A stretch of DNA of 64,000 nucleotides from NCBI GenBank assembly GCA_964516495.1, contig CAZEZF010000002.1:1231-65230 (forward strand). Reading direction: 5' to 3'. The DNA is from an uncultured Acidimicrobiia bacterium (lineage in GTDB: Bacteria > Actinomycetota > Acidimicrobiia > Spongiisociales > Spongiisociaceae). The notes under the pieces are model-generated. The model searched no databases and was not told where the DNA came from. It saw only the letters and a list, made by a program, of their open reading frames with translations. A program made the translations under genes and the position numbers. Below, piece after piece: positions 21,694 through 42,797 of the stretch (the first letter of the stretch is position 1; the number at the start of each line of letters is the position of its first letter).

Positions 21694-23202
21694 ATGACCC
21701 TTAAAAGAGAGGAATGGCAGGGAATAGTCCGTGATGTCGACTGGACTCTTGGATATGTGGACGACGACGCCGTATACCCGGATTGGTTGAGCGGAACGGG
21801 CAAGGTTCCCCGTGAGGCCTGGTCGGCATGGGAGGAGAGCTACAAGGTCGCCTATCCCGAGTATGTCGCCACCCAACACGAGAAGGAAACCTCGGCCTAC
21901 GCCGTCAAGGCGGCTCTACGCAAGTCCAACCAGTACGACATGCTGGACGAGGCGTGGCGGTCATCGGTCAAGATGCACCTCGGGGGAATCGCCCTCGTCG
22001 AGTACGCGGCGGTTTACGGTGAGAGCCGCATGGCTCGCTTCGGCCTCAGCCCCGCCTGGCGCAACATGGCCGTCATGGGAACCCTCGACGAGATTCGTCA
22101 CGGGCAACTCAGCCTCTCCTTCGCCCATGAGCTGGTAGAGCGGGATCCGCAGTTCGACTGGGCCCACAAGGCCCTCCTGACCAACGACTGGGTCGCTATC
22201 GCGCTGCGAGCCCTGATCGACAACATGATGATCGGCGGCAGCGTGGTTGACATCGCCATCCAGTTGCCCTTCGCATTCGAAACCGGATTTACGAACATCC
22301 AGTTCGTGGCTCTGGCCGCCGACGCCTTGGAAGCCGGCGACGTGGCCTTCGCCAACCTGATCTCCTCGATCCAGACGGACGAGGCTCGCCACTCCCAGCA
22401 GGGTGGACCCACCTTGGAGGTGCTGATCGAGCATGATCCGGTTCGGGCCCAGTGGACCGTGGACAAGTTCTTCTGGCTGTCGGCGCGCGCCTTTGCCGCC
22501 CTCACCGGCCCGTCGATGGACTACAACACCCCGGTGGAGTCCCGCAAGTACAGCTATCGGGAGTTCATGGAGGAGTGGATCATCGACCAGTTCGTCCGCA
22601 CCATCCAGGACTACGGCCTCAAGCGCCCCTGGTACTGGGACGAGTTCATCGAGGGTCTTGATGTGTGGCACCACTCGCTGCAGATGGGGGAGTGGTTCTG
22701 GCGTCCCACCCTTTGGTGGAAGCCGGTCGGTATCACCCCGGAATCACGGGAGTGGTTGATCGAGAAATACCCGAACTGGGAGCTCCTCTACGGCGACAAA
22801 TGGCGGATCCTCGCCGAGAACATTAACGCCGGTAATATGAACCGCGCTCTTCCGGAGACCCTTCCCTGGTTGTGCAACTACTGCCACCTCCCCACCTGTA
22901 ACGCCACCTACGGGCGGGACGGCAAGTGGCGGGTCCGGAATCACTCGCTCAAGCACAACGGTATCACCTATCACTTCTGCACTCGGGCCTGCCGTCAGAT
23001 CTGGTGGGAGGATCGCGACGCACTCAACAACAAGACGGTGGTGGAGAGGTTCCTGGCCGGTCAGATCCAGCCGATGGACGTTCCCGGAATACTGGGTTAC
23101 ATGGGCATCACGCCCGACGTCATGGGTGACGACGCCAGCGCCTACGATTGGACCGAGGCCTACGCCCGTACCGGGAAGGTAGGCGCGGGAGTGGGTGCAT
23201 GA
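21694..23202 (+). CDS. Soluble di-iron monooxygenase hydroxylase alpha subunit (toluene/alkene/propane monooxygenase type)
   Basis: Two di-iron ligand motifs DEIRHGQ and DEARHSQ, about 500 aa like TmoA/TouA-type alpha subunits. Confidence 0.8.
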   Translation: MTLKREEWQGIVRDVDWTLGYVDDDAVYPDWLSGTGKVPREAWSAWEESYKVAYPEYVATQHEKETSAYAVKAALRKSNQYDMLDEAWRSSVKMHLGGIALVEYAAVYGESRMARFGLSPAWRNMAVMGTLDEIRHGQLSLSFAHELVERDPQFDWAHKALLTNDWVAIALRALIDNMMIGGSVVDIAIQLPFAFETGFTNIQFVALAADALEAGDVAFANLISSIQTDEARHSQQGGPTLEVLIEHDPVRAQWTVDKFFWLSARAFAALTGPSMDYNTPVESRKYSYREFMEEWIIDQFVRTIQDYGLKRPWYWDEFIEGLDVWHHSLQMGEWFWRPTLWWKPVGITPESREWLIEKYPNWELLYGDKWRILAENINAGNMNRALPETLPWLCNYCHLPTCNATYGRDGKWRVRNHSLKHNGITYHFCTRACRQIWWEDRDALNNKTVVERFLAGQIQPMDVPGILGYMGITPDVMGDDASAYDWTEAYARTGKVGAGVGA

Positions 23203-23474
23203 GCGACAACGGCGCCGCCGCAGAACCACAGTTGGTTCCACTCAACGCCATCTTCGCCGACGACTTTGTAGAGATCCTGGTTCCGGTGATGTCCAACAAC
23301 ACCATCGCCGAGGTGGCGGAAGCGGTAGCTCACCACACGGTGGGTGTGCGGGTTCGAGACCGTGGTCTACCCAAGATCGTCGTCCACAACAACCGGATAC
23401 TGCCGTCCGACCTGACGGTGGTCGAGGCGGGGATTGCCCCCCTCGACCATATCCGGGTTGACTGGCAAGAGTAG
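23199..23474 (+). CDS. Monooxygenase small (TmoB-like) subunit
   Basis: About 90 aa ORF between alpha and effector genes, overlapping stop/start. Confidence 0.5.
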   Translation: MSDNGAAAEPQLVPLNAIFADDFVEILVPVMSNNTIAEVAEAVAHHTVGVRVRDRGLPKIVVHNNRILPSDLTVVEAGIAPLDHIRVDWQE

Positions 23475-23484
23475 GAGGGTCGAT

Positions 23485-23790
23485 ATGGAGAATCCGGTAG
23501 GTCCGATTCTACGGATGAGCGACTCCATCGAGGAGATCATCAGCGCTATCGAGGACGATAATCCCGGTCGGGAGATCGAGGTCATCGACCGGGGCGCTTA
23601 TGTGCGGGTGCAAGCCTCCTCCTTCCTGAAGGTGACGGCCGAGTCGTTGAAACGCCATTTAGGACCCGATTACCAGTTGCGATCCCTGGAAACCTTGCTG
23701 ACCGCCAACGCCGGGCGTATCAACACGTCCCGGAGTGATCAAACGAGTTGGTCGCTGGGTGGGGCAACCGAGGAGGACGTGACATCATGA
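23485..23790 (+). CDS. Monooxygenase effector/coupling protein (MmoB/DmpM family)
   Basis: About 100 aa, position and composition typical of SDIMO effector. Confidence 0.55.
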   Translation: MENPVGPILRMSDSIEEIISAIEDDNPGREIEVIDRGAYVRVQASSFLKVTAESLKRHLGPDYQLRSLETLLTANAGRINTSRSDQTSWSLGGATEEDVTS

Positions 23791-24821
23791 ACGCCAAGAA
23801 GCGTAAGCTGCGCACATGGAGCGAGTTCGGCGAGATTCGACGCCGTCCCACCGAGTATGAAATCGGCGCTCACGCCGCCAACTACACGGTCCGGCGAGAT
23901 CGAATGGCGCCCCTGGAGCAGAACCCTTCTTCTCCGGGAAACCTGTGGTTCTTGGCCTATCGAGACAATTCCCCGCTTCAGATCGACGACTGGGAGGTAT
24001 TCCGGGATCCTGACCAGCTGACCTATCGGGCCTATGTGTCGAAGCAGTCCACGCAAGAGGCCAAGGTGGCGGGATTGCTGGACAGCTTCGCGGCTGTCGG
24101 CCATGATGAGTCCTTGTCGGCCGGATGGGTGGATATTCTGCGAAAGCTCTACACGCCCATGCGTTATCCGTCGCACGTCATCCAGATGTTGCAGGCCTAT
24201 GTGGCGCACATGTCACCCACGGCCTACATCACCAACGCGGCGGCTTTGGCCGCGGCTGATCAGCTGCGACGGGTAACGGTGGTGTCGATCCGAACCCGTG
24301 AGCTACAGATGGCCTATCCGGAGGCAGGTTTCGTCACCGGTGAGCGCAAGATCTGGGAAGATCACGAAGCGTGGCAACCGGCCAGGGAACTCTTGGAGAA
24401 GGCCCTTATCGCCTATGACTGGGGCGAGGCCTTGACGGCCGCCAACCTGGTTATCGCCCCTACCCTCGACGATGTCCTGAACCGACAGTTGGGCGAGACG
24501 GCCCGAGCCAACAACGACAATCTGACCTGGTTGCTGTGTCAGAATCTGCATGAGGATACGGCTCGCCGGGCCCGGTGGTCGGCTGCGGTCGTCCGGCTGG
24601 CGGTGGAGAGCCGCTCGGAGAACGCGTCGGCTTTCGAACGCTGGATCAAGAAATGGGCGCCGCGGGCCGATGCCGCCGCGCTGGCCCTGGGAACCATGTT
24701 GGCCGGTGCGCCGGAGGGAAGGGTCGACGCCGAGACGGTGGCGGTGGAAGCTGCCGAGGCAAGGCGACAGATCCTCGCCACCACCGGATTGACCTGTCCG
24801 GCCGTTCACGCAGCGAGCTGA
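23787..24821 (+). CDS. Soluble di-iron monooxygenase hydroxylase beta subunit
   Basis: About 340 aa, ATGA-coupled to effector gene, beta-subunit-like helical protein. Confidence 0.6.
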   Translation: MNAKKRKLRTWSEFGEIRRRPTEYEIGAHAANYTVRRDRMAPLEQNPSSPGNLWFLAYRDNSPLQIDDWEVFRDPDQLTYRAYVSKQSTQEAKVAGLLDSFAAVGHDESLSAGWVDILRKLYTPMRYPSHVIQMLQAYVAHMSPTAYITNAAALAAADQLRRVTVVSIRTRELQMAYPEAGFVTGERKIWEDHEAWQPARELLEKALIAYDWGEALTAANLVIAPTLDDVLNRQLGETARANNDNLTWLLCQNLHEDTARRARWSAAVVRLAVESRSENASAFERWIKKWAPRADAAALALGTMLAGAPEGRVDAETVAVEAAEARRQILATTGLTCPAVHAAS

Positions 24822-24828
24822 GAGGTCG

Positions 24829-25152
24829 ATGACCGAATCTTCCGACCGGTGGCTCGACGCCATGGAACTGGATGACCTCTGGGAGGGTGACCTCGAAGGC
24901 GTTACGGTCGGCCGCCACAAACTCATACTCGTCAATGTGGATGGGGAGGTGCGCGCCTACCGGGATCGTTGCCCGCACCAGGCTTGGCCGCTTTCGGACG
25001 GAGATCTGGATGGCGAGGTGCTTACCTGCACCAACCATTTATGGGAGTTCAACGCGATAACCGGCGCCGGGATCAATCCGGACGACTGTTCATTGTTCAC
25101 CGTTCCGTGCAAGGTTGAGGATGGTGTCATCTACGTAGCGCCGCCCGGCTGA
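24829..25152 (+). CDS. Rieske [2Fe-2S] ferredoxin component
   Basis: CPHQAWPLSDG ... CTNHLWEF (CxH / CxxH Rieske ligands). Confidence 0.8.
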   Translation: MTESSDRWLDAMELDDLWEGDLEGVTVGRHKLILVNVDGEVRAYRDRCPHQAWPLSDGDLDGEVLTCTNHLWEFNAITGAGINPDDCSLFTVPCKVEDGVIYVAPPG

Positions 25153-25154
25153 TC

Positions 25155-26396
25155 ATGGCTGGTCTCCCGGAGACCGTCGTGTTGTTAGGTGGCGGTACCG
25201 CTTCGGCGGCGTGTGCGTCGACTCTTCGCCATAGAGGTTTCGACGGCCGGATCGTGTTGGTATCGGAAGAGGTGGAACTACCTTACGAACGTCCGCCCCT
25301 TTCGAAGCAGATACCGGCCGGGACTATGGATCCCGGCGCGGCAACCATCCGCAGCGAGGATTGGTACCACGCTAACGATGTAGAGTTGCGGCTTGGTGTC
25401 AGGGTCATATCTGTAGACGCAGACGGTTCGGCGGTCGGCACAGAGAAAGGTGAGCGAATCGGGTACGACCACCTCCTGGTCGCTACCGGGGGGCGGGCCC
25501 GGAGGCTGGCCCATATCGAAGGAGATCGAGTCCTGCACCTGCGCACCCGACGGGACGCTGAGAGGCTGTCGTCCGTATTGCGGGAGCGAGGCCGTCTCGC
25601 GGTGCTGGGTGGAGGTTTTATAGGTTGCGAGGTGGCCTCGACCGCCTTGGATTTGGGCGTTGAAGTGACCATTATCGAGATGGAGCCCTACTGTCTCCGC
25701 GCGCCTCTGGGGGACCGTTACGGACGGATCATGACCGAGATCCATGAGGACCGGGGATGTCGGATGCGGATGGGGGAGAGGGTCACCGGCGCCATCGAGA
25801 CTGCGGATGGGTTGATGGTGACCACCGACCTGGACAGGCTGGAGTGCGACTGGCTACTGGTAGCCGCCGGTATGATCCCGAACACCGAACCGGTACTCGG
25901 TACTCCGATCGAAGTGGACAATGGGATACTGGTGGATAGCCACTGCCGAACTTCCGTTCCCAACGTGTACGCAGCCGGAGACGTCGCCGCCCGCCGTCGT
26001 CCCGGTGGCGGGCGGCGGGTGGAGCATCATGACAACGCCATGAGGCAGGGCGCGGTGGTAGCTCGCAACATCCTGGGCGAGAAGACATGCGATGACGAGC
26101 CGCATTGGTTCTGGTCGGACCAGTACGACCTGTCGATTCAATCCCTGGGTGAGTTCGATCCGGATGCGAACCATGTGATCAGAGGATCGCTCGACGATCG
26201 GTCCTTCTCGGCCTTCCATCTCGCCGGGGATGGGGTGAGCGGGAGTAGCATCGAGGGAGTACTGACCATCGGCCGACCGAGAGATGTCTTTGCGGCCCGA
26301 AAGCTCATGAAGTCGGGAATGACCGTGACTGCCGGACAGCTGGAGGACCTTTCCACGGATTTGCGCCGCCTCGCTCGACCCCGGAGACGACGATGA
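25155..26396 (+). CDS. FAD/NAD(P)H-dependent ferredoxin reductase (pyridine nucleotide-disulfide oxidoreductase family)
   Basis: N-terminal VVLLGGGTASAACA, second dinucleotide fold LAVLGGGFIGCEVA, BphA4-like architecture. Confidence 0.75.
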   Translation: MAGLPETVVLLGGGTASAACASTLRHRGFDGRIVLVSEEVELPYERPPLSKQIPAGTMDPGAATIRSEDWYHANDVELRLGVRVISVDADGSAVGTEKGERIGYDHLLVATGGRARRLAHIEGDRVLHLRTRRDAERLSSVLRERGRLAVLGGGFIGCEVASTALDLGVEVTIIEMEPYCLRAPLGDRYGRIMTEIHEDRGCRMRMGERVTGAIETADGLMVTTDLDRLECDWLLVAAGMIPNTEPVLGTPIEVDNGILVDSHCRTSVPNVYAAGDVAARRRPGGGRRVEHHDNAMRQGAVVARNILGEKTCDDEPHWFWSDQYDLSIQSLGEFDPDANHVIRGSLDDRSFSAFHLAGDGVSGSSIEGVLTIGRPRDVFAARKLMKSGMTVTAGQLEDLSTDLRRLARPRRRR

Positions 26397-26800
26397 GTGA
26401 CCCAGCGCTTCCGGCGCCCACCGTGACCGCCCTCAAGACCAACGTCCGGATCGACCAGGACGAAGCCGTACATATCCTGAGGTCTATCGAGGGTATGAAT
26501 GTCGAGGAGGCTCACCGAGCTCTCAAGTTCCGGCCCGGTCTTGTTTCGGCGCCGCTCTCCCGGGTACTCGAGCAGGGCTTGGCGGAAGCGGCCCGCTTCG
26601 GGATACGGAGCCGTGAGATGGAGGTCGGTAGTTGGAGTGTGGACGATGGGGATGTAATCACCCGTCTGCGGAGGATGGCGCACGGCATCGCCGATTGGAT
26701 CACCACCAGCACCACCCGGGTCGAGATTCAATTACTAGTAGTGACCTGGCAGACCTCTTCGGGACAGGATGAACGCGACCAGATCACAGAGAGAAGGTAG
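26393..26800 (+). CDS. Hypothetical protein translationally coupled (ATGA) to the reductase; sequence pattern resembles the ribosomal uL22 fold
   Basis: VEEAHRALKF / RVLEQGLAEAA / VDDGDVITRLRRMAHGIADWITTSTTRVEIQL parallel the L22 blocks VSQALDIL / KVLESAIANAE / [32 protein letters not shown]. Confidence 0.35.
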   Translation: MSDPALPAPTVTALKTNVRIDQDEAVHILRSIEGMNVEEAHRALKFRPGLVSAPLSRVLEQGLAEAARFGIRSREMEVGSWSVDDGDVITRLRRMAHGIADWITTSTTRVEIQLLVVTWQTSSGQDERDQITERR

Positions 26801-29579: not shown

Positions 29580-29804
29580 TCCCGACGACTCGAAAAGGCG
29601 CCATCAACATGTTGCGAAGGTCAGGTTCGAGGGCGTCCTCACGAAGAAGATAGAATCCTTAGCGTAGAGTAGTGAGAATTAGTAGTGTAGTAATGCGTGA
29701 ACTTATAGTGCTGACATAGCCTACGGTATCGGGTGACCAGTATCCGTATCGGGAGGACTACTGGGCCACCTGCGGCGCCGGGTAGTCGTTCAAGGGGACG
29801 AAGT

Positions 29805-31100
29805 ATGGCCGACACGGAGAAAACAACGTACCGCCCTCGGGTGGTCGATAAGGAGTTGGATTGGTTGCTGTCCGGACTTCCGGCTATCAGTATCAACGGT
29901 CCGCGCGCCGTGGGAAAAACCAGCACCGCCCTCCGGCGCGCTCGGACCATCCACAGCCTGGACGACCCCCAGACGTTGGCGCTGACCCTGGCCGATCCCG
30001 GCCGCTTGACAGCCGGGGAGCGTCCGGTGTTGATCGACGAATGGCAACTCTATCCCCCTGCGTGGGATCTGGTACGGCGCGCTGTGGACGCCGACCCTGC
30101 GCCGGGCGGGTTCATTCTCACCGGTTCCACGGCTCCGGAGACACCCCCGACGCACTCTGGCGCCGGACGCATCATCGTGTTGAGGATGAGGCCGATGGCA
30201 TTGAGCGAGCGCGGCCTTGAAGCGTCGACCGTGAGCCTGCGCGCCATGCTGGAAGGGAACCAACCCCCGGTGAAGGGACGGACCGGCGTAGGTCTGGCGG
30301 ACTACGCCCGGGAGATAGTCTCCGGAGGCTTTCCGGGCATGCAACACGCCGACCCCGAACTCCAGTCGGCTTACCTCGACGGCTATCTCGACATGGCTAT
30401 CGACCATGATGTAGCCCTGATGGGTTACCGGGTTCGCCGGCCGGTTATGATGCGACGCTGGCTGGCCGCTTACGCCGCGGCGACTGCAACCACCGCGACT
30501 TACGAGGCCATTCTGGATGCGGCCACTCCCGGAGAGGGCCAGAAACCGGCGAAGACCACGACGGCGGCCTATCGCGACCTACTGGAGGCGATGTGGTTGG
30601 TGGAGCCGGTCTCCGCCTGGCAACCGCGTGGCAATCCCCTACGACGACTCAAGCGGGGGCCGAAACATCATCTGGCCGACCCTTGCCTCGCCGCCCGGCT
30701 GATGGGAGTAACGGAAGCCTCGTTGGTCTCGCCCCTTCCGAAGGAGAGGGCGCATCCTGCTCCGTTTGCCAAAGGTCCTCTGCTGGGCGCATTGTTCGAA
30801 TCGCTGGTTACCCAGAGCGTTCGCGTCTACGCCCAATCTGCCCGGGCGCGGGTGGGCCACCTGCGAACCTGGAATGACGTTCGCGAAGTCGATCTGATTG
30901 TCGAGCGAGAGGACAAGGTGCTCGCAATCGAGGTCAAACTCGTTGCCGCCCCCACTCGTTCCGACACCGCCCACCTACGTTGGCTCGCTGACCAGATGGG
31001 CTCTGAGGTCTGCGATACCATGATCGTGACCACCGGCCGGCACGCCTATCGGGATCAGGACGGAGTAGCCGTGGTTCCCGCCGCGTTGCTAGGTCCCTGA
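29805..31100 (+). CDS. COG1373-type AAA+ ATPase (AAA_14 + DUF4143 architecture)
   Basis: Walker A GPRAVGKTS, Walker B VLIDEWQ, C-terminal DUF4143-like region. Confidence 0.6.
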   Translation: MADTEKTTYRPRVVDKELDWLLSGLPAISINGPRAVGKTSTALRRARTIHSLDDPQTLALTLADPGRLTAGERPVLIDEWQLYPPAWDLVRRAVDADPAPGGFILTGSTAPETPPTHSGAGRIIVLRMRPMALSERGLEASTVSLRAMLEGNQPPVKGRTGVGLADYAREIVSGGFPGMQHADPELQSAYLDGYLDMAIDHDVALMGYRVRRPVMMRRWLAAYAAATATTATYEAILDAATPGEGQKPAKTTTAAYRDLLEAMWLVEPVSAWQPRGNPLRRLKRGPKHHLADPCLAARLMGVTEASLVSPLPKERAHPAPFAKGPLLGALFESLVTQSVRVYAQSARARVGHLRTWNDVREVDLIVEREDKVLAIEVKLVAAPTRSDTAHLRWLADQMGSEVCDTMIVTTGRHAYRDQDGVAVVPAALLGP

Positions 31101-31573: not shown

Positions 31574-34500
31574 TTACAAGGGCACGGAGGCGGGGCGGTT
31601 AGAGATGGTCGGTTCGACGGCCAGCCTTCTGCGCCACTCGACAATCTCTTCCTCATCGAAGTCGAGGGCCATCGCAGCGGCCCGGTCGATGATCCGGCGC
31701 GCCTGACATTCTTGACCTAGCGACAGGGGGAGCATCTCGAGGTCGGCGGCCTGCTCCCATGCCTCCGCGAGGTGTGACCAGGCAGAGTTGTCGGGTCTGG
31801 GTACTCCGACCTGCCGTAGCTGCGCCAACGACCACGATGGATACGTCAGTTTCTTCGTGCGGAGGTTGAGTAGCATGAGTCGGACGGGAGTGGAGTTCCA
31901 CCATGCCACCAACGCCTTGCCTTCCGGTTTCCCGGAGACCGCAACCGGGATCCATCCTGACCCGATGGACGGTGTCGGCGACCAGAGAGCCGTTAGACGC
32001 CCGCTGATAGTGTCGTAACGCTCGGTGACTAGAGTGTGACTGCGCATCTCCCAATACCGACGAGCTAGGTGTGACTTGTCGGCCTTGGGATAGCCTTGAT
32101 GGTCTGGCGTACCCGCCATCCGCCGGTGGATCTTGGCGGCGATTGACCAGAACAGGGGAACTGTCTCCGGGTCTACCTCAGCGGACTTACGATAGGTATC
32201 GCGTATTCCCCGCCCTGATGGGCCGATCCAGTGGTGAAGGCCGATCGGTTCCAAGTTTGGCGACAGGTTGATTAGGTAGGTTGCCTCGGCAAGTTGACCG
32301 TCGAACCACTGCACTGGCGCCCAGTCGCCGGCTTGGACGCGGTCGGCCGGCCAGAACGTGCGGCTGCCCCACTCGGTAGCGTTCCTTTGTGCGATGGCGT
32401 CTGCTGCTGCAAGGGTTTCTTCCGGGCTGGTTGGCATTCTGCGTAACGCGAAGAACTCGGTCTCGGGGGGGGGGTGTTGATTCGACGCGCTATCAGCAGG
32501 CACTCGTGTATGCCGGTGTTCTCGGAGAAGTTTATGCGTTTGGGGTCGTGCGAGGTGATGATCCGTTCGATGTGGAACCGCTTCGCCAAGAAAACACGCT
32601 CTTCCACACCCGACGACCCGATGCAACCTGTCGCCGGAACAACTTTCGCGAGCGTTCCCGCTGTGGTCCCATTCCTGTCAGATGGCGAATCCGTACCCTC
32701 TTCACCCGCGTACGGATCCCGGAGGAGGCGGTCGGCGAGGGGAGTGAAGAAGGTGCTGACGCTGTTGACGTTGACAACCTGTCCGGCTTCATGGTCAGAT
32801 TGGGATAGATGATCGCGCAGGCTCAACTCGTACTGCTGCATCTGTCTCACCTGTTCAGAGGTGTATTGGCGGCCTCGCTTCACGTTGTTGGTGAAAGGTG
32901 GGTTCATGATGACCAGGTCGAGGTTGCCGGTCGGTAGCTCGGTCTCCTCATCGCTCACCTGGGTAGCGCCAAGTCCCAGCCGGGTTGCCAGAGGACGTAC
33001 CAGGCTTGCCAACGAGTCCGCATCTTCGGCGGCGCCGAGAATCTCCAACGAACCGGCTTTGACCTCACCGTCCGGTTGCGGACCGTGTTTCAGGGTGAAT
33101 AAGTTTATCCGTCGGTAGTCAACCGTCGGGGCGCCCAAGGTCAGGTTGCAGGCGGCCATCTGCACGGCGTAGCGGTTGATGTCAAGGCCGTAGATCACGT
33201 TCTCGACCAACGCCTTGTGGAACCCGGCCATGTCGTCCTCGCTCATCTGACGAGCTTCTCGTACACGGGACTTCATCACTTGCAGGGCGGCCATGAGCAG
33301 CGTTCCGGTGCCGCAGGCCGGATCCATGATTCTCAGTCGATTTACCTGTTCGGTGTCGTTCCATTCAACAAAGTCCTCGCTGATGGCGAGCCGGGCCAGT
33401 AGTAGCGCCGAGATGTTGTTGGTGTAATACGAGCCGGTCGCAGCGGCGTTGGGCAGGATGCGGTGGTAGAGCGGTCCGGCATGGTCGTAACCCAACTCGC
33501 TGAGCGAGGTGGCCGTTCGGTTGGCGCACTCGGCGAGTATGCATAGGGCGTGGCTTACGAAGCGCCGCCGGGGTAGGGTGGCGAGAACTGCCACGGCGGG
33601 TTCGAACACCGGTTTGTAGTCCTGTTCCAGGATTTTCTCCCAGTCGCGGACCAACGCCTCGGCGGGGTACTCGTCGCCCGACACCCGGGCCAGGTCGTCC
33701 AGCCAACCCATGTGCGCCACATCGGCCAGCCTACGGTGTAATAGGCAGGCGTTGGCGACCAGGAGTGCGGCGATCTTGCAGATATCGCGCTCGTTCCGGT
33801 CAACGCTCAAGCCCATGGCGGTTGCCAGGTCGGTAGCCAGGTCTCCCTCCTTGAAGAGCCCGGCCGCTCGCCGTACCGCATGGGTGATCTCGTCGGCTAC
33901 CAGCAGACCAGGTGTTCCCAGACCGGAGGAGGCCACCACATGAGCGAAGATGCCGCGTCCGACCTCCTTGAGATCAAGCGTCAACTGATCCGGGATGTAG
34001 TCCTCTTCGGATGACGGGTCGTCTCCGGTCGGTTCCTGGACGGAGACGAAGCGAAGCGGGTCCTCCGCGAGACGCCCGTCGTGGGACTGAAGCGCCCGCA
34101 ATACCTGGCCGACGGCCTTGTAGCCCTGGCTGCCTTCAGAGAGCGCGGTGGTCAGGTCCTCGCCGGGGGAGATCGGGATCGGCACGATTACATACCCGAG
34201 CCGCTTGCCCTCGCTACGCCGCATAACCCGACCAACCGCCTGGACGATGTCCACCTGGCTGTCCCTCGGCTCCATAAAGACAATGGCGTTCAGCGACGGA
34301 ACGTCGACACCTTCGCTGAAGAGCTTCACGTTGCACAGAACCCGGGCGGTGTCGCCGTCGCCGGCTCGACGAAGCTTCCGAAGGGCCTGGTTGCGCTGGA
34401 AGGCGCTGTTGGCGCCGTCGAGATGTTTGGCGTCGATCTTCAAGGAGGACTCGGCGTCGCGTCGACCCCGGCGTACCCGGCGGGTAATGAGAGATCTGAG

Positions 34501-35985
34501 TTCGGGATGCGCCAGAGCTTCGGCGAAGAACTTGGAGCGTTTGATCGAGTTGGCAAAAGCGATGGTGCGGTGTAGTCGCCCCGGGCGCTCCAACGATGCG
34601 CCTTCCGCCACGCCGTTGATAGCCAGGGCGGTTCCCAACAGGCGGGTCGCTTCGGTGCTGGTGACGGTCAGGGGCTTTCCCCGCCCCGTGCTCAGCTGTT
34701 CGCCGAGGGAGACCAGGCGCCTCCACATGCCCTCAGGGACGTCCCGGTCGCGGACGCCGAGCACGATCACCCGGTAGTCGGAGAGCATCTCGTGGTTAAC
34801 GGCGTCTTTGAAGGACAGGAGGTCCAGTTCCGGTCCGTACACCTCCAAGTCGGACATGTCCACCGTCTCGATACCCCGGGCTTTGAGTGAACCGCGAGAC
34901 CTGGCCGTGTAGATACGCGGCGTGGCGGTCATATAGAGGCGTTTGGAAGCTGACAGCAGGTCATCGTGATGCACCGCCTGGAACCCGTTGAAGTCCTTGA
35001 TCTGTGAGCCGGCCCGATCCACGCCGGTGGTGCGATGCGCCTCGTCGCACAGCACCAGATCGAAGGAGGGGGTCTCGTGTTTCTGCTGGGCCTCGGTCAG
35101 GCGCCGGAGTGACTGGTAGGTGGAGAACACCACCCGAGTGTTGCTGGTTTCCGGTTTTGGGGCCATCAAATCGGCCAACTTCTTGGGATCGGAAGTGACC
35201 GCGCATTCGAGTTCGGAGAGCTTGATCTCGTTTCCTTCTCCACGACCTCCGGCGGAACGGTCCGAGCAGACGACCCGGCAGTCGAGAGGTCGGAGGGTGT
35301 GCCGTAGCCACTCCCGCCTGGCCTGCGAGACGAGGGCGATGCTCGGGGCGAGGAACAGGATTCGACCACCGTCGGGAACCACCTGCTCCGCTATCCGGAG
35401 TGCGGTGAACGTCTTGCCCGTGCCGCACGCCATGGTGAGGCGGCCCCGGTGATGGTATTGCAGACCCTTCACGACTTTGTCGATCGCCTCCTGCTGGCGC
35501 GGCCACGGTCGGCGTACCGGGCGACCGTCGCCCGGTACGGTGAGCGGATCGTTCTCATGCCGCAGGAAGTCGATCCGTCGAACGGGTGGCTCAGCCCCTT
35601 CGACAGCCGCCTCGGCTGCCTTTGTCCAATCACTGGTGGCGATAATCCAACGCATGGAGTAGACCGACTGCTGGGTGAAACCAAGGAAAGAGTCGATTGC
35701 CGGCTTCGAGACGCGGGCCTTCTCGGAGTAGCACTTGCATTGAATGGCGATCCATCCGTCGCTTCGATGCCGGGCTACCAGGTCGACTCCCCAGTCGCGA
35801 CCGTCGTGTCCGGTCAACTCCTCCCGTTCCGGCCAGTCCGCCCATCGGTGGACCTTCTCGATCTCGTATTCAGGGTTTGCCAAGAGAACCTGGCTGACAA
35901 GGTTCTCGAACCATCGACCCTTCTCACTCTCGTCACGGCTTTCCCGTCGGATCCGATCCAGCGCCTCGCCAATCGTCGAAACCAT
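31574..35985 (-). pseudogene. Type ISP-like single-polypeptide restriction-modification enzyme (Mrr-cat nuclease - SF2 helicase-like ATPase - gamma-class N6-adenine MTase - TRD), reading frame broken at a C10 homopolymer (phase-variable, pseudogene or sequencing error)
   Basis: Mrr-like D...QCK (GVDLVAR...IAIQCKCY); Walker A MACGTGKT and DEAH box LVLCDEAHR; MTase motif I MDPACGTGTLL and motif IV VIMNPPFTNN; 1237-aa frame degenerates into low complexity after INTPPP while the overlapping 350-aa frame (HPPPETEFFALRRMPTSPEE...) continues as a plausible TRD. Confidence 0.7.
32465..32474. repeat. G10 (C10 on coding strand) homopolymer tract at the frameshift point of the RM gene
   Basis: tctcGGGGGGGGGGtgttga; both overlapping frames translate it as PPP. 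Confidence 0.9.
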
Positions 35986-36184
35986 GTTCTGCCTCCCTGC
36001 CTTCTCGGCAGCGGGTCTCCCTGTACCCGCCCGAGATATGCCCGCCCGAGATTTACCTATAACCGTACGTGATCCGCGATCCAGGCGCCTTCCCGTTCAG
36101 GGTCGGATGGATCACCGCCTCTATTGCGCGACGACGGTTGGAATGTGCAGCGAGGTTGATTCCCGGTCGCCCCGATACAAGGTC

Positions 36185-36345
36185 GAGTTCCCGAAAGGGG
36201 TGACTGGCTACTTGAATGTTTCCGCTAGATTGTCCTCCTACGTCTGCGAAAGACCGATGGAAGGTAGGGCTGTGGTTCATTTTGATGCGTCAGCGAGCCT
36301 TCGTTGCTCCTCCGGCGATTACATCTCCACTCGGGGATCCATCAC
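36185..36345 (+). repeat. Repeat B1: partial duplicate of promoter and 5' end of the 37569 gene (contains a 54-codon remnant ORF 36257..36421)
   Basis: About 80 percent identity to 37497..37650 incl. ttgaatgtttccgctagattgtcctcctacgtctgcgaa and ATGGAAGGTAGG start. Confidence 0.7.
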
Positions 36346-36481
36346 CCCCACCGGCTTGCGACGGTATGTCTATTGGCACATGGAGCATCCGCTTGAGGCT
36401 CGCACCGCTATTGGATGCTGATGTCGGTTCGACTGCGCGGGTCTCGATCCCCGTCCGTCGGGTCATTACCCGATTTCCCTG

Positions 36482-37450
36482 ATGCCTCCCGCGGTCCGGA
36501 TGGGCTTCCAGGTATGGGCACAGCATGTGTCCTGGGCGGAACTGATGGGCGCGGCCACATCGATAGAGGGCCGCGGCTTCGACAGCCTGTGGAGCAACGA
36601 TCACTTCTTTCCGATCGCAGGCTATGAACTCGACGTCAACCAGCGCCTGGAAGGTCCGATCTTCGAGGGATGGACGGTCCTGTCCGGTTTCGTCGCCCAT
36701 ACCAACGCCGTCCGGGTGGGATGTATGGTCTCAGCGGCGGGTTTTCGCAACCCCGGCTTGCTGGTGAAGATGGCAACGAGTCTGGATCATGCGTCGGGTG
36801 GCCGCCTGGTGTTGGGTATCGGCGCCGGATGGTACGAACGGGATCACATAGCGTTCGGGCTCGATCACCCGACAGTCGGAGAGCGTCTCGATCGATTGGA
36901 TGAGACGGTCGTGGCTATCAGAAGGTTGCTCGACGGCGAGACGGTGTCGATGGAGGGTAGATGGGTTCGGATGGTGAAAGCGCGCAACGATCCCCCTCCG
37001 CTTCAGAAGAACATGCCGTTGCTGGTCGGAGGCAGCGGCGAGCGGCGTAGTCTACCGTTAGCGGCTCGGTTCGCCGACTGGTGGAACGGTGAGGGGACCC
37101 CTGAGGAGATCGCCCGCAAGAACGTGCTCCTTGATCGGATGACCGAAGCTGCCGGGAGACGTCCGGCCGACCTCATCAGGACAGTGGGGTTACCCAATCC
37201 GCTAATCCGCAGTTCCCGGGCCGAAGCGGCGGAGGTCGCGGCCGCAATCCTGGCGAGACATGGCATGCCCGCCGGACAGGCGTGTGCTGCGGCCGTCAGG
37301 TCACCCTTGGTCGGGCCCTCGGATCAGGTCGCCGCCTATCTCCGCCGGTACGCGGAAGTCGGCGTAGCCGAAGTGGTCTTCGACTGGCCCTCTCCCTTCG
37401 ATGTGGAAACCCTTGACGCACTGGCGATCCTTCGCCGGGAAATGGGTTGA
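36482..37450 (+). CDS. LLM-class flavin/F420-dependent oxidoreductase
   Basis: FDSLWSNDHFF..., LVLGIGAGW motifs of luciferase-like monooxygenase family. Confidence 0.65.
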   Translation: MPPAVRMGFQVWAQHVSWAELMGAATSIEGRGFDSLWSNDHFFPIAGYELDVNQRLEGPIFEGWTVLSGFVAHTNAVRVGCMVSAAGFRNPGLLVKMATSLDHASGGRLVLGIGAGWYERDHIAFGLDHPTVGERLDRLDETVVAIRRLLDGETVSMEGRWVRMVKARNDPPPLQKNMPLLVGGSGERRSLPLAARFADWWNGEGTPEEIARKNVLLDRMTEAAGRRPADLIRTVGLPNPLIRSSRAEAAEVAAAILARHGMPAGQACAAAVRSPLVGPSDQVAAYLRRYAEVGVAEVVFDWPSPFDVETLDALAILRREMG

Positions 37451-37496
37451 GAGAGAGAGCCGGCCACGTTCGATGCGAGTGGTTTGCCGCGCCTCG

Positions 37497-37650
37497 GAGG
37501 TCCGAAAGGGGTTGGGTGGCTGCTTGAATGTTTCCGCTAGATTGTCCTCCTACGTCTGCGAAGCACCGATGGAAGGTAGGACCGTGGTTTCTCCGATGTA
37601 TCAGGGCGCCTCTGTTGCTCCACTGGCAATTACCGTTCCACTCGGGATCT
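37497..37650 (+). repeat. Repeat B2 (promoter/5' region of hypothetical gene), direct repeat partner of B1
   Basis: See B1. Confidence 0.7.
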
Positions 37651-38327
37651 CTATCCAGGAGTTCTCGACCATCATGGTTGCCATCGGCGGTCTCTACCGA
37701 GAGGTTGGTAAGGCCCTGGGCACTGAGGAGGTAACCGGGCTTCAGGTGAGCAGACATCGGGAGGGAAGCCTGGTGTTGGAGTGTGATCCGCTTCTTAAGG
37801 ATGGTTCCGACCCCTCCGCTGCCAATAGTGTCACCGATGTGCTCCTACAAGAATTGGAAGCGCTTGCGATAGGCAGCAGGTCCGCGAGCTTCAGTCAAGC
37901 CGCACTCAAGCATGCCGCCAAGTTGACCGGAGCTTTCACGGACGAGGGTTCTCAGGTGGTTGTATCAAGCGGTAGCCGATCCGTCTCGTTCGGCGTGGAC
38001 TTCCGCTCCACAGTTCTGGGCTTGGTCAACCGCACGACGGTCAGCTGGGGATCGGTTGAGGGGACGCTGCAAATGATCTCGCTGAGGGGACCTTCACGGT
38101 TCAACCTACACGAAATGCTCACTGACGAGAAGGTGGAGTGCAGATTCGATGCAGACATGCTTGAAACCGCGAGGGCGTCGTTGGGGTATCGAGTTGTTGT
38201 TTCCGGCGAGATCCACAAACGAGGGGGCAAGTTTGAGTACGTCAAGGTAGAGCGCCTGCACGCTCGTCCTCCATCTGACCAACTCCCGGGCTTTGCGGAG
38301 ATCCGCGGGCTGTTTGCTGACGCCTGA
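37569..38327 (+). CDS. Hypothetical protein (253 aa from ATG 37569; track ORF starts 37401)
   Basis: No recognisable domain; start inferred from the conserved ATGGAAGGTAGG shared with repeat B1. Confidence 0.35.
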   Translation: MEGRTVVSPMYQGASVAPLAITVPLGISIQEFSTIMVAIGGLYREVGKALGTEEVTGLQVSRHREGSLVLECDPLLKDGSDPSAANSVTDVLLQELEALAIGSRSASFSQAALKHAAKLTGAFTDEGSQVVVSSGSRSVSFGVDFRSTVLGLVNRTTVSWGSVEGTLQMISLRGPSRFNLHEMLTDEKVECRFDADMLETARASLGYRVVVSGEIHKRGGKFEYVKVERLHARPPSDQLPGFAEIRGLFADA

Positions 38328-38351
38328 TCAAATGCCGGCTGAATTACGATA

Positions 38352-38798
38352 TTGGGATTCTGCATGTTTCTGGCAGTGATGAAAAACGAACCAAAAGGCA
38401 TGGAGTGCGAAGGGGTGATAGAGGCCGCGGAAGCGGGGACTGTTCGGATTGTGACATCCACATGGACCCTTACCGAAGTTATTCGGATTAGGGGGTTGGA
38501 CACCATGACCGAATCCGACGATCATGTGATCAGACGATTCTTTGAACGTGACTATATCGCGCTACGAGCTGTGACAGAGGAGATCGGCCACAAGTCACGA
38601 CGGCTGGTCTGGAAACAACGTTATTCCACCAAGGACGCCATACACATAGCGACCGCCCTGGACGCAAATTGTACCGTCTTCGACACTTTCGACCAGCAGT
38701 TGATCAACCTGGGTGCGCCGACAGGATCTCATCTTCGGATAACGACACCCGATCTACCGAGCCGACCACGCTTGCTGATCAACGGTGCATCTGCATAA
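38352..38798 (+). CDS. PIN-like domain protein (possibly degenerate; N-terminal acidic residue not evident)
   Basis: C-terminal DAIHIATALDANCTVFDTFDQQL resembles PIN motif IV; 24 nt downstream of the hypothetical gene. Confidence 0.35.
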   Translation: MGFCMFLAVMKNEPKGMECEGVIEAAEAGTVRIVTSTWTLTEVIRIRGLDTMTESDDHVIRRFFERDYIALRAVTEEIGHKSRRLVWKQRYSTKDAIHIATALDANCTVFDTFDQQLINLGAPTGSHLRITTPDLPSRPRLLINGASA

Positions 38799-38945: not shown

Positions 38946-39033
38946 AAACAGGGGCGGACCATACTCAAAACGGGCGGTTAGCAGCGCCTCGCAGGTTCTT
39001 GGTGGTTAGCATCCCTTAAACGGCGGTTAGGGC
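38946..39033 (+). promoter_or_regulatory. Array of direct repeats AAAC(G)GGCGGTTAG x3-4 upstream of the coxM-like gene
   Basis: aaaacaggggcggacc / aaaacgggcggttagc / ggtggttagc / aaacggcggttaggg spaced about 20-30 bp. Confidence 0.4.
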
Positions 39034-39068: not shown

Positions 39069-39941
39069 GTGAAACCAGCGGTTTTCAATTATTCGGCGCC
39101 GGAGAACATTGCAGAAGTTCTGGATCTTCTCGCCGAACACGGTCCGGAAGCGAAACTACTCGCCGGCGGCCAGAGTCTTGTTCCGATGCTCAACTTCCGG
39201 TTGGCGAGACCGGCGCATCTGATCGACATCAACGGAGTCGAGTCTCTGGCGCACATCTCGTCCAACGGAACGCTGCGGATCGGCGCCATGACCCGTCTGA
39301 CCGAGGTAGGTGAGTCGAGCGTGGTAGCAGCGGCGCATCCGGTTATTTCGGCGGCCGTGTCCCAGATCGGGCACCGGGCGATCCGCAATCGCGGCACGAT
39401 CGGAGGGTCGTTGGCGCACAACGATCCGGCCGCAGAGCTTCCGGCGGTGTTGATGGCTCTGGATGCCGAAGTGACGGCGCGGTCCATGGACGGGGAGCGG
39501 GTGATCGGGATCAGCGACCTCATCGGTGATCGTCTCTTCGACACCACCCTCGCCGACACGGAGTTGCTGACCGAGATCAGCGTTCCGGCGGCCGCTGGTC
39601 GCAGCCGATTCGGGTTTCAAGAGTTTGCCCGTCGCCACGGGGACTTCGCCCTGGCCGGAGTGGCGGTGGTGATCTCCCTCGACGGCGGCGCCATCAAGTC
39701 GGCCTCCCTGGCCGCATTCGGTGGTACCCATGCAGCTCGTCTTCCGTCCGCAGAAGCGGCCCTGGTGGGAGTTGAAGCGACCGGCGCGGCATTCGAAGCC
39801 GCCGGTGAGGCCGCATCGGCGGATTTTCCCACCACTTCGGATGTTCACGGTTCCGGCGAATACCGGAGCCACCTGGTCAAGGTACTTACGGTTCGTGCCC
39901 TTGCGGACGCGGCCGGCAATGCGGGAGGCGGTAATGGCTGA
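39069..39941 (+). CDS. Xanthine dehydrogenase/CO dehydrogenase family FAD-binding medium subunit (CoxM/CutM-like)
   Basis: FAD-binding domain pattern KLLAGGQSLVPMLNFRLARP, 290 aa. Confidence 0.75.
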   Translation: MKPAVFNYSAPENIAEVLDLLAEHGPEAKLLAGGQSLVPMLNFRLARPAHLIDINGVESLAHISSNGTLRIGAMTRLTEVGESSVVAAAHPVISAAVSQIGHRAIRNRGTIGGSLAHNDPAAELPAVLMALDAEVTARSMDGERVIGISDLIGDRLFDTTLADTELLTEISVPAAAGRSRFGFQEFARRHGDFALAGVAVVISLDGGAIKSASLAAFGGTHAARLPSAEAALVGVEATGAAFEAAGEAASADFPTTSDVHGSGEYRSHLVKVLTVRALADAAGNAGGGNG

Positions 39942-40425
39942 AAGAGTGAGTGTGGCCCTCAATGTCAACGGCGCCACCAGAGAGATATCGGTGGAGCCGC
40001 GCAAGACCTTGGCCGACGCAGTCCGTGAGGACCTAGGCCTTACCGGCACTCACCTGGGTTGCGAGCACGGGGTGTGCGGGGCGTGCACGGTCTTGCTCGA
40101 CGGGGAGGTTGTCCGCTCCTGCCTGCTGTTCGCCGTTCAGGCGGCGGGTTCGGAGATAACCACCATCGAAGGGATCGGCGCCGGGGGAGACCTCCACCCG
40201 ATGCAGGAGGCGTTTTCCCGCTACCACGGTCTTCAATGCGGATTCTGTACCCCGGGGATGATCCTGGCGGGCATCGACATGCTGTCCCGGAATCCGGATC
40301 CGAGCCGCCAGGAGGTACGAGAAGAAATGGGCGGCAACATCTGCCGGTGTACCGGTTACCAGAAAATCGTCGAGTCGGTCCAGGCAGCCGCCGCCGTGAT
40401 GGCCGGTGAAGGGGGGAGCAAATGA
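39934..40425 (+). CDS. [2Fe-2S]-binding small subunit (CoxS/CutS-like)
   Basis: CEHGVCGACTV and CGFCTPG cluster motifs. Confidence 0.8.
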   Translation: MAERVSVALNVNGATREISVEPRKTLADAVREDLGLTGTHLGCEHGVCGACTVLLDGEVVRSCLLFAVQAAGSEITTIEGIGAGGDLHPMQEAFSRYHGLQCGFCTPGMILAGIDMLSRNPDPSRQEVREEMGGNICRCTGYQKIVESVQAAAAVMAGEGGSK

Positions 40426-42797
40426 CCACCACGCAGGAGACCGGTTGGATCGGCCGTTCGGCGCCTCGCCGGGAGGATGGCCCCCTCATTCGGGGCCGGG
40501 GCCGCTTCATCGCCGACATCGAGCCGGCAGGAACCCTTCACATGGCTGTTCTTCGCAGCCCGTTCGCCCATGCCCGCATCAGCGCCATCGACACATCGGC
40601 GGCCGGAGCCCTCGATGGTGTCCATCTCGTCCTCACTGCGGACGACCTCGACGGTGTCGGGGACTTTCCGACCATTTGGCGGTTGCCTGGTCAGAAAGAG
40701 TCCGATACTCCGGCCCTTGCTCCGGGCAAGGCTCGTTACGTCGGCGAACCTGTGGCCGCGGTGGTGGCCGACTCGCGATACGTCGCCGAAGACGGTCTCG
40801 ACCTGATCGAAGTGGACTATGAGGTTCTCGACCATGTGGTTGGAGTCGAGGCGGCTATAGCGGAGGACGCTCCGGTCATCAACGAGCACATGGGCGACAA
40901 CGCCATCATCGAGTATACCTTCCCGGGGATCAACGCTCTCGGGGAAGCCGGGGATGTGGCGGCCGCATTCGATGAGGCCGACGAGATCGTTAGCGGCCGG
41001 TTCCATATCGGTCGATACTCCGGGGTTCCGTTGGAGACACGGGGTTTGGTGGTCGAATGGGATGACCTTCGCCAGACCCTTACCGTCCACTCGGAAAGCC
41101 AGGTAGCCAGCCTGTTCCGAACCGAGTTGGCCGCGGCCCTGGGTCTTCCTGAGACGGCCGTCCGAGTGCTTACTCCGAACATCGGGGGCGCCTTCGGCAA
41201 CAAGTGGGACCGGTATCCGGAGGACATCCTGGTATCTGTCGCGGCGATGAGGCTCGGCCGCCCGGTGAAGTGGATCGAGGACCGCCGCGAATCGCTGCGA
41301 GCAACCGTTCACGGACGGGAGCAGGTACAGGAGTGGCGCCTGGCGGCCCGCTCCGACGGAACCATTCTGGGATTGAAAGGCCGCGTGCTGAGCGACCAGG
41401 GCGCCCATCTGCACAGCGTGGGTATCGGACCGGCGTGGGTAACCGGCGCGGCGGCGGTCAACCAGTACAAGATCGCCAACTACCACTGCGATGTGATCGG
41501 AGTGGCCACGAACAAGACGCCGAACAGCACCTTCCGCGGATTCGGTGGTCCCGAGGCCATGTTCGGGATCGAAAGGATGGTGGACAAGACCGCCCGCCGG
41601 CTCGGTATGGACCAAGCCGAGATCAGACGGAAGAACATGATCGGGGCGGACGAGTTTCCGTACTTCAGCCCGGGTGGCGCCGTCTACGACAGCGGCAATT
41701 ACCCCGCGGCCTTGGAGAAGGCGCTGGAGGCGGTCGAATACGACAAGTTGCGCGCGGAGCAGCAAAGCCTGCGAGAGCAGGGGATTTACCGGGGGGTCGG
41801 CATAGCCTCCTACATTCATGTCTCCGGCTTCGGGCCCTCGGCAATCCTCGGGTTCCTCGACTACTACACCGGTGGCTACGAGGGTTCTACCGTCAAGATC
41901 GATCCGCACGGGCGAGCGACCCTGTACACGGGAATGATCCCCATGGGACAAGGCACCGAGACCACCCTTGCTCAAGTAGCGGCCGATCACCTTGAGATCG
42001 ACATCGCCAACGTAAGAGTCGTGTGGGGAGACACCGACCAGACTCCCTACACCGGCTTCGGATCCGCCGGCAGCCGCTCGAACGTGGCGGCGGTGGCGCT
42101 TATCAAAGCGATCGACGAGATCAAGGCGAAAGCGGTGCGGATCGGGGCCGGATTGCTGGAAGCCGATCCCGACGATGTGGCTTATGCGGACGGTCGGATC
42201 TCCGTCAAGGGGGCCGAGGAGATGAAGTCCCTCACCCTGGCCGAGGTGGCGCAGCAGGCGTACTGGGGTCACCATATCCCGGAAGGCGACCAGCCCACTC
42301 TTGAGGCGACCTATGTGTACGACCCGGCCAACTTCACCACCGCGTACGGCACCCATGTGGCGGTGGTGGATGTGGACATCGACACCGGCAAGATCGACTG
42401 GGTCAGGTATGTAGTGGTCGACGACTGCGGCACGGTCATCAACCCGCTTCTGGTAGAAGGGCAGATCCACGGCGCCTTGGCGCAAGGTCTGGGCGGGGCG
42501 ATGTTGGAGGAGTTCGTGTACGACGAGGAGACCGGGCAGTTGCTGTCATCCTCGCTGATGGACTACCTGTTGCCGTCGTTCACCGACCTGCCGGACTTTG
42601 ACATCCATCACCTGGTCACCCCGTCTCCGCACACCGAGGGCGGGTTCAAGGGAATGGGAGAGGCCGGATGTTTCCCGGCCGCTCCGGCTCTCGCCAACGC
42701 GGTGGTTGATGCGCTGTCGGACCTGGGGGTGGAGGTGGATCAGACCCCTATCACACCGAGTCGGCTGTGGACTTTGATCGAACAGGCGCGCGGCTAG
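40422..42797 (+). CDS. Molybdopterin-binding large subunit of xanthine dehydrogenase family (CoxL-like; active-site loop STFRGFGGPEA, neither AYXCSFR nor AYRGAGR)
   Basis: 791 aa aldehyde oxidase/xanthine DH Mo-co domains; GFGGP loop. Confidence 0.75.
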   Translation: MTTTQETGWIGRSAPRREDGPLIRGRGRFIADIEPAGTLHMAVLRSPFAHARISAIDTSAAGALDGVHLVLTADDLDGVGDFPTIWRLPGQKESDTPALAPGKARYVGEPVAAVVADSRYVAEDGLDLIEVDYEVLDHVVGVEAAIAEDAPVINEHMGDNAIIEYTFPGINALGEAGDVAAAFDEADEIVSGRFHIGRYSGVPLETRGLVVEWDDLRQTLTVHSESQVASLFRTELAAALGLPETAVRVLTPNIGGAFGNKWDRYPEDILVSVAAMRLGRPVKWIEDRRESLRATVHGREQVQEWRLAARSDGTILGLKGRVLSDQGAHLHSVGIGPAWVTGAAAVNQYKIANYHCDVIGVATNKTPNSTFRGFGGPEAMFGIERMVDKTARRLGMDQAEIRRKNMIGADEFPYFSPGGAVYDSGNYPAALEKALEAVEYDKLRAEQQSLREQGIYRGVGIASYIHVSGFGPSAILGFLDYYTGGYEGSTVKIDPHGRATLYTGMIPMGQGTETTLAQVAADHLEIDIANVRVVWGDTDQTPYTGFGSAGSRSNVAAVALIKAIDEIKAKAVRIGAGLLEADPDDVAYADGRISVKGAEEMKSLTLAEVAQQAYWGHHIPEGDQPTLEATYVYDPANFTTAYGTHVAVVDVDIDTGKIDWVRYVVVDDCGTVINPLLVEGQIHGALAQGLGGAMLEEFVYDEETGQLLSSSLMDYLLPSFTDLPDFDIHHLVTPSPHTEGGFKGMGEAGCFPAAPALANAVVDALSDLGVEVDQTPITPSRLWTLIEQARG

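Follow-up and report, generated by a model that had tools for sequence, protein, structure and literature searches.

A resident LLM-class oxidoreductase gene flanked by two pieces of a putatively acquired X-PIN module in an uncultured Acidimicrobiia bacterium

We analysed a 64,000-nucleotide (nt) stretch of DNA from an uncultured Acidimicrobiia bacterium (contig CAZEZF010000002.1; the whole stretch is called the window below), in which a gene for an LLM-class oxidoreductase lies between two direct repeats, R1 and R2. R2 forms the 5′ end of a gene named X here, which is followed by a gene for a PIN-domain protein. A preliminary description, made from the sequence alone, regarded the LLM gene as the inserted element. 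Comparison with related contigs indicates the opposite: the LLM gene is resident, and the foreign DNA consists of the X-PIN pair and of whatever replaced the 5′ part of an aminotransferase gene. The region would then hold one resident gene and two pieces of a horizontally acquired module. We consider it probable that X-PIN was acquired, that R1 is the stump of an X gene joined to resident DNA at a short microhomology, and that the promoter in this stump now serves the resident LLM gene. The features on which this account is built are listed below.

36185..36338, + strand: R1, decayed X promoter, 5′ untranslated region (UTR) and first ~27 codons, delimited by the repeat alignment
36211..36250, + strand: perfect core of R1, 40 nt, with the −10-like TAGATT (36226-36231) and most of the 5′ UTR; the ATG follows at 36257
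36329..36335, + strand: microhomology ACTCGGG, where the 5′ fragment of X meets the remnant of the aminotransferase gene
36339..36481, + strand: remnant (pseudogene) of the 3′ part of a DegT-type aminotransferase gene, tblastn E 5e-8
36482..37450, + strand: LLM-class (likely F420-type) oxidoreductase gene, native; Bac_luciferase 7.7e-42, orthologous and syntenic with L004, L005 and L006
37497..37649, + strand: R2, 5′ end of X with the presumed working promoter, the 5′ UTR and 27 codons; core at 37523-37562, TAGATT at 37538-37543
37569..38327, + strand: gene X, 252 amino acids (aa), with homologues and a predicted structure
38332..38798, + strand: PIN (VapC-like) gene with a −1 frameshift at ~38370-38371; frame A (38332-38379) reads MPAELRYWDSACFWQ and then a stop codon, frame B runs to 38798
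39069..42797, + strand: coxM/S/L-like molybdenum hydroxylase genes, native; synteny with L004 resumes at ~39037

The resident LLM gene between the two repeats

The LLM gene was found at 36482-37450, between the repeats, where the preliminary description had placed it. Its product clearly matched the Pfam Bac_luciferase model and scored 206.3 bits against the F420-dependent family TIGR03560, below the cut-off of 231.4; it can be filed in the LLM class, with the F420 subfamily only likely. The closest homologues, 74-75% identical, were located on the sponge-metagenome contigs L004, L005 and L006, where the gene order is UPF0182, DegT-type aminotransferase, LLM, EamA and coxM/S/L-like, and where the stop codon of the aminotransferase gene overlaps the start codon of the LLM gene. 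The window aligned with these relatives over the LLM gene and again from about 39037 (L004) through the cox-like genes, with coxM 80% identical. Between the native LLM and coxMSL genes, X-PIN occupies the position that EamA has in the relatives. The GC content of X-PIN is 54-58%, against 62-66% around it, and that of the LLM gene is native. Directly upstream, the remnant of the aminotransferase gene has kept the original TGATG overlap of its stop codon with the LLM start codon. Because both the synteny of the relatives (LLM, coxMSL) and this 3′ remnant are retained, the LLM gene is to be viewed as resident.

The direct repeat itself, as announced in the preliminary description, is real. The two copies (36185-36338 and 37497-37649) lie on the same (+) strand, 1312 nt apart, and align over 154 columns at 79% identity with one 1-nt indel. 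Outside either end no similarity above chance was found, and the match stops sharply at both ends. The 39-nt motif quoted earlier occurred exactly twice in the window and in none of 100 shuffles. The longest perfect run measures 40 nt (36211-36250 = 37523-37562); when the 32 differences between R1 and R2 were redistributed by column shuffles, a run of at least 40 nt arose in 0.04% of trials (P about 4e-4). Over the 58 nt from 36211 to 36268, R1 and R2 differ at 2 positions only, whereas outside the core the identity is about 69%, the 31% difference being even across codon positions. A (GA)5 microsatellite (37451-37462) directly follows the LLM stop codon in the 46-nt spacer before R2.

An independent assembly bears on the arrangement as well. 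The Logan unitig L012 (run SRR22586461) matches the window from 36221 to 37547 at 100%, with its two ends inside the two cores, so that the LLM gene is flanked by the core on both sides there too. The L012 segment connects to nothing else, and the path found in the window is the only linear one that includes the LLM gene.

Three other explanations of the repeat were weighed, all of them of low probability. That the LLM gene was inserted as a foreign gene or cassette into the 5′ end of X, duplicating a target of ~155 bp, as the preliminary description had suggested, would account for the flanking repeats and for a unitig that starts and ends within the repeat core. This is very unlikely given the synteny with coxMSL and with the aminotransferase remnant that the gene shares with L004, L005 and L006, the TGATG overlap and the native GC content of the LLM gene beside the low GC content of X-PIN. 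Between the repeats we found only a truncated native pseudogene and the LLM gene, with no integrase, transposase or terminal inverted repeats and none of the inverted repeats expected of a mobile cassette, transposon or integron. Moreover, the copies share no more than 79% identity, and R1 ends on its right in a microhomology junction with a resident gene. An assembly artefact, a mis-join at the 40-nt repeat, is slightly less probable still. The contig comes from a metagenome-assembled genome (MAG), the identical core is longer than common k-mer sizes, and two nearby genes carry frameshifts, but in the independent unitig the LLM segment is bounded by the core on either side and has no other connection, and the diverged flanks of each copy are unique. 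Equally improbable is a structured cis-regulatory RNA (riboswitch or leader) shared by two genes, for which a strongly conserved core upstream of two open reading frames (ORFs) on one strand might speak. No Rfam match was obtained anywhere in the window, both strands of both copies folded no better than shuffles (all z-scores positive, +0.3 to +1.5), the 3′ half of R2 encodes conserved X residues (APLAITVPLG), and R1 terminates at a recombination junction; the RNA element was rejected. An unrelated dispersed repeat likewise lacks evidence, with two occurrences of the core in the whole window and, in the genome-contig collection, no exact match to a 25-nt pattern taken from it.

Origin of the upstream copy and the promoter of the LLM gene

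R2 is the true 5′ end of X, because the residues it encodes, APLAITVPLGIS, align with the conserved family motif APLEISVPLGIS. In R1 the frame is broken by a 1-nt insertion after GTGGTT, which leaves the degraded X sequence out of frame with its own ATG, and the conserved residues are altered (APPAITSPLG, against APLEISVPLG in the family). The 54-codon remnant reported earlier (36257-36421) turned out to be a chimera of the X start codon, an out-of-frame stretch of the X 5′ end and a fragment of the aminotransferase gene.

The junction lies within this chimera. In a three-way alignment, R1 tracked R2 up to CCACTCGGG and the aminotransferase gene from ACTCGGG on. The heptamer is also present in X (37640-37646) and in the aminotransferase gene of L004 and L006, and 5′ of it X and the aminotransferase gene show chance-level similarity only. 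The switch at ACTCGGG from R2-like to aminotransferase-like sequence, with chance similarity upstream, identifies the junction as illegitimate recombination at a 7-nt microhomology. A tblastn match that extended the aminotransferase protein into R1, from 36272 on, was attributed to chance, since tests at the nucleotide level showed only the 7-nt microhomology.

The remnant reads VYWHMEHPLEARTAIGC, a stop codon and CRFDCAGLDPRP, against VYNHMEHLLGARTATGRGCPFECPGTDPRS; the in-frame stop lies at 36419-36421, and about 165 nt are deleted internally. Its identity by codon position is 0.72/0.76/0.39, compared to 0.80/0.87/0.54 for the LLM gene. This still coding-type pattern of divergence suggests that the aminotransferase gene was inactivated fairly recently. 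We also observed that the X frame of R1 is open from an internal ATG at 36285 through the remnant, for 66 codons, to a TGA that overlaps the LLM ATG (36285-36482). Judged by this overlap, translational coupling of an upstream ORF to the LLM gene could persist, or the open frame may be due to chance.

We propose that R1, with promoter, UTR and ~27 codons, is what remains of the 5′ end of a second X-PIN copy that had already diverged. Illegitimate recombination at ACTCGGG would have fused this stump to the 3′ part of the aminotransferase gene, which natively preceded the LLM gene and was translationally coupled to it. In the same event, the aminotransferase gene would have lost its 5′ part together with the native DNA upstream, and a Type ISP restriction-modification (RM) gene would have come to lie 200 nt away. 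Deprived of its operon promoter, the LLM gene would most likely be driven by the promoter of R1, and X-PIN by that of R2.

The conserved core is consistent with this role. In the loci L001, L002, L007 and L009, a −10-like hexamer (TAGATT, TAGCTT, TATATT or CAGCTT) is found 21-26 nt 5′ of the X ATG and is the only conserved element upstream of X; the 40-nt core includes this hexamer in both copies. Of the two functions, promoter or operator, that the preliminary description had considered for the motif, the hexamer ahead of the X start codon suits the first, and a promoter in the core region is a reasonable inference from the hexamer and its position alone. The core is also compatible with an operator, which is no proof of one. 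No terminator-like site was found between R1 and the LLM gene. A role of the R1 promoter in driving the LLM gene would account for the identity of both copies in the core, from the −10 element up to a point 6 nt short of the ATG, beside flanks that have drifted.

Several observations weigh against the proposed history. A simple sigma-70 scan found no promoter in R1 or R2, as no −35 match was present, and a Shine-Dalgarno sequence is not evident before the LLM start codon. The perfect core could equally represent a short gene-conversion tract between R1 and R2, and not selection. In none of the other loci did we find a second X′-PIN′ copy or a donor arrangement with the RM gene beside X. Moreover, the frameshifts in the PIN gene and in the RM gene could be assembly or sequencing errors.

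As to how the stump arrived, an X′ copy beside the RM gene may have become fused with the aminotransferase gene, either through a deletion in situ or through one-step homology-facilitated illegitimate recombination (HFIR) of incoming DNA. Alternatively, the segment comprising the 3′ end of the aminotransferase gene, the LLM gene, the spacer and the repeat might have been tandemly duplicated between the ACTCGGG sites, with a later loss upstream, to 36184, that brought in the RM gene. The junction is exactly the one expected from ACTCGGG in the aminotransferase gene crossing with ACTCGGG in X, and R1 and R2 share the derived AIT (not EIS) against all other homologues. We nevertheless find a tandem duplication rather unlikely. 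It requires an extra event with a breakpoint just left of the promoter; the LLM 3′ end and the 46-nt spacer have left no trace upstream of R1 (chance-level scores); and the 31% divergence of the non-core parts looks higher than the extra decay of the remnant, which is roughly 10% with a wide error. The already diverged second copy is weakly favoured, because LLM and spacer traces are missing left of R1 and because the remnant was inactivated recently while the non-core repeat differs by 31%. The codon-position counts behind this comparison are small and not decisive. Among close relatives sought for an ancestral arrangement, the nearest X was 71% and the nearest LLM 75% identical, and a scan of the metagenome contigs yielded no relatives.

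The rearrangement resembles known cases of microhomology-mediated illegitimate recombination, or HFIR, and of promoter capture in that a 7-nt junction joins unrelated genes. As in promoter capture by gene fragments, what appears to be a foreign promoter fragment precedes a resident gene that has lost its operon promoter. Unlike in those cases, the donor fragment here is paralogous to the module just downstream, which creates a direct repeat that mimics a cassette. On the whole, the event looks like ordinary genome scarring with a plausible twist of promoter donation.

The X-PIN module

The 253-aa ORF of the preliminary description, here X, is genuine: it is intact (252 aa) and has homologues. 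Thirteen close homologues of about 251 aa were found in Acidimicrobiia MAGs, many of them from sponge symbionts. In the public annotation, X (P0001) has 284 aa and begins 32 codons earlier (37473-37568), across the predicted promoter; the homologues support a start at 37569. A profile search returned 2734 clusters (50% identity) at E<=1e-3 and 1387 at E<=1e-10; almost all representatives are about 250 aa long. The named members, one from Skermanella included, are all called "hypothetical protein". Members occur in Actinomycetota and Alphaproteobacteria (Skermanella), and one locus has neighbour genes of Planctomycetes type. X had no match in Pfam, NCBIfam, PADLOC or PHROG and no relative by sequence in the PDB, and tblastn gave no match in the plasmid and phage collections.

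AlphaFold modelled X with confidence, at a predicted local distance difference test (pLDDT) score of 81 for the whole protein and of 90 for the N-domain. In the model, an N-terminal alpha/beta domain (~18-153) is followed by a C-terminal OB fold (~156-232) and by the tail LPGFAEIRGLFAD, an Arg-Gly tail whose pattern LPxxxD[IV]RGL is conserved across the family. The earlier statement that X has no recognisable domain therefore stands for the sequence libraries and falls for structure prediction. The predicted OB fold appears to be of the tRNA-anticodon/SSB class and, going by the model, can be likened to OB-fold nucleic-acid-binding domains such as PF01336 (tRNA_anti-codon), those of SSB, RPA and PriB, and the anticodon-binding domain of LysRS/AsnRS. 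It would supply a surface for binding nucleic acid. A literature search returned nothing relevant on the X family or on a PIN partner with an OB fold.

The PIN product matched Pfam PIN (PF01850) at 3e-10, its only match; no hit was obtained in NCBIfam, PADLOC or PHROG, and no relative by sequence in the PDB. Its start is not the TTG located 24 nt after X, as assumed before, but the ATG at 38332, 4 nt after the X stop codon. At codon 14 one T is missing (TGTTTC-TGG, against TGTTTCTTGG in six relatives), and the resulting −1 frameshift puts the first 13 codons (MPAELRYWDSACF), which hold the first catalytic Asp, out of frame with the rest. The 148-aa ORF described previously lacks this Asp because the frameshift separates D9 from the remainder. 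Compared with the six relatives the toxin ORF is not intact here, and the PIN toxin is probably inactive in this genome. Once repaired in frame, the PIN sequence is 63-77% identical to the neighbours of close X homologues and 30-34% identical to those of distant ones, and D9, E49, D102 and D121 are invariant in the 10 aligned PIN proteins (the window sequence frame-repaired).

X is linked to a PIN subfamily of its own well beyond this genome, without exception in the loci inspected. In 14/14 distinct loci, including those whose X is only 26-35% identical, a PIN gene lies directly 3′ of X, at spacings from a 35-nt gap to a 20-nt overlap (4 nt in the window). The two-gene module put forward in the preliminary description is real, conserved and uncharacterised, and to judge from gene arrangement it appears to be of toxin-antitoxin type. 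PIN has decayed with X kept here as well as in L001 (frameshift) and L010 (25 PIN residues left); in L010, X itself is frameshifted too. The surroundings are mixed, some loci being defence-related or mobile and many plainly metabolic. In the closest relatives, L001 (5840-5920) and L007, a tRNA gene is found ~80 nt 5′ of the module and a Fic gene close by, with PIN frameshifted in L001 and intact in L007. The distant X-PIN of L013 (1-6804) is found beside genes for an SNF2/DUF3670 helicase, a cysteine-desulfurase-family protein (Aminotran_5) and DUF4007, and that of L018 (1-470) beside a phage-type integrase.

We read X-PIN as a horizontally acquired, bicistronic module in the style of VapBC, that is, a type II toxin-antitoxin module. 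PIN would be the RNase effector, with D9/E49/D102/D121, and X its cognate partner, most likely a subunit that neutralises or regulates PIN through the C-terminal Arg-Gly tail. The logic of type II systems fits because of the gene order, the spacing, the mobility and the repeated decay of PIN. As in VapBC (FitAB, Shigella and Mycobacterium VapBC), a PIN protein of ~150 aa with four conserved acidic residues is encoded downstream, the partner gene directly precedes the PIN gene in one operon, with a very short gap or an overlap, and the copies are scattered, appear horizontally mobile and have often lost the toxin gene to decay. In FitAB, Arg68 of FitA plugs the acidic pocket of FitB. By analogy, the conserved arginine of the X tail could act likewise and may enter the acidic pocket of PIN. 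In contrast to VapBC, X has about 250 aa where such partners have 70-100 aa; it is not a small antitoxin with an N-terminal DNA-binding domain, and AbrB, RHH, Phd and HTH domains are replaced by an alpha/beta domain without family and an OB fold. A non-canonical, VapBC-like module is our best, inferred reading of X-PIN.

This reading has its own weak points. The term antitoxin is an assumption for a protein three times the size of a canonical VapB with no recognised DNA-binding domain, and X could instead be a sensor or a substrate-recruiting subunit. It is possible, although doubtful, that X-PIN is a two-subunit nuclease or defence effector in which the OB fold of X recruits or senses RNA, tRNA or single-stranded DNA (ssDNA), for instance of a phage, and switches PIN on. 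The size of X, its predicted OB fold of the tRNA-anticodon/SSB class, the missing DNA-binding antitoxin domain and the defence-related or mobile neighbours (those of L013 and L018, the RM gene here, the Fic and tRNA genes of L001) are consistent with an effector. Against an effector stand the lack of a match in PADLOC, the plain metabolic neighbourhood of many loci, a gene order and overlap as in classic type II pairs, and the repeated loss of PIN with X kept, which fits the loss of a toxin.

In its widest and most tentative form, the interpretation would make X-PIN a widespread, unnamed PIN conflict system across several phyla, in which X, a 250-aa protein with a new N-terminal domain and an OB fold, would sense or recruit nucleic acid (tRNA, phage ssDNA or RNA) and gate PIN via the Arg-Gly tail. 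A stump of its autoregulated promoter/operator would here have been co-opted for a housekeeping gene, that of the F420-type oxidoreductase. We hold this to be an unlikely reading.

Neighbouring genes and significance

One further gene adjoins the region described above.

31574..35985, − strand: Type ISP RM gene, divergent from R1; similar to LlaBIII (4xqk), 5e-88

The start of this gene at 35985 agrees with the preliminary description. The X-PIN pair is not back-to-back with it, as had been stated; it is R1 that adjoins the RM gene, 200 nt away. Like the Type ISP enzymes LlaBIII and LlaGI, the product has Mrr-type nuclease, SF2 helicase and N6-methyltransferase domains; unlike in those enzymes, the frame is lost at ten consecutive C (atcaacaCCCCCCCCCCgagac, ~32466-32475), before the C-terminal region. 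Frame 0 continues into junk with a stop at 32272, while another frame provides a good ORF to 31574, and the signal of GC content at third codon positions (GC3) switches frame at about 32,500. The C10 run could be a phase-variable homopolymer, the mark of a pseudogene or an assembly error. In none of the other loci examined was a functional link of the Type ISP RM gene to X-PIN seen. A 15-nt sequence, CCCGCCCGAGAT(A/T)(T/G), is repeated in tandem and in direct orientation at 36026-36055, within the 200-nt divergent spacer and close to the RM start codon on its upstream side; the repeat may serve the RM gene as an operator.

A defence island had been proposed for this part of the window. The proposal is only partly borne out: upstream there are the Type ISP RM gene and a gene for a DUF4143 ATPase, and beyond these the genes are metabolic. 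The DUF4143/AAA_14 ATPase gene (29733-31100) lies between the RM gene and a soluble di-iron monooxygenase cluster (21694-26800) with two Phenol_Hydrox subunits and a ferredoxin-reductase-like protein. On the other side, between the PIN stop codon and coxM, three copies of GG(C/T)GGTTAG were found at 38973-39030, 28 and 21 nt apart, which are absent from the corresponding spacer of L004.

Direct repeats around a gene need not signal its insertion, as the flanked LLM gene is the resident here. The region is a clean example of illegitimate recombination, by which an operon gene left without its own promoter probably acquired a foreign one. If the promoter/operator of R1 has indeed been co-opted, a metabolic gene would have come under control in the style of a toxin-antitoxin system. 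The X-PIN family is a more valuable result than the rearrangement, being large, linked to PIN and without a model in the libraries searched, and having a partner with a predicted OB fold. Such a partner for a PIN toxin would be a departure from the textbook design of VapB, and, if it is true that the OB fold binds a target RNA or the nucleic acid of an invader, X-PIN would represent a new control logic for PIN nucleases.

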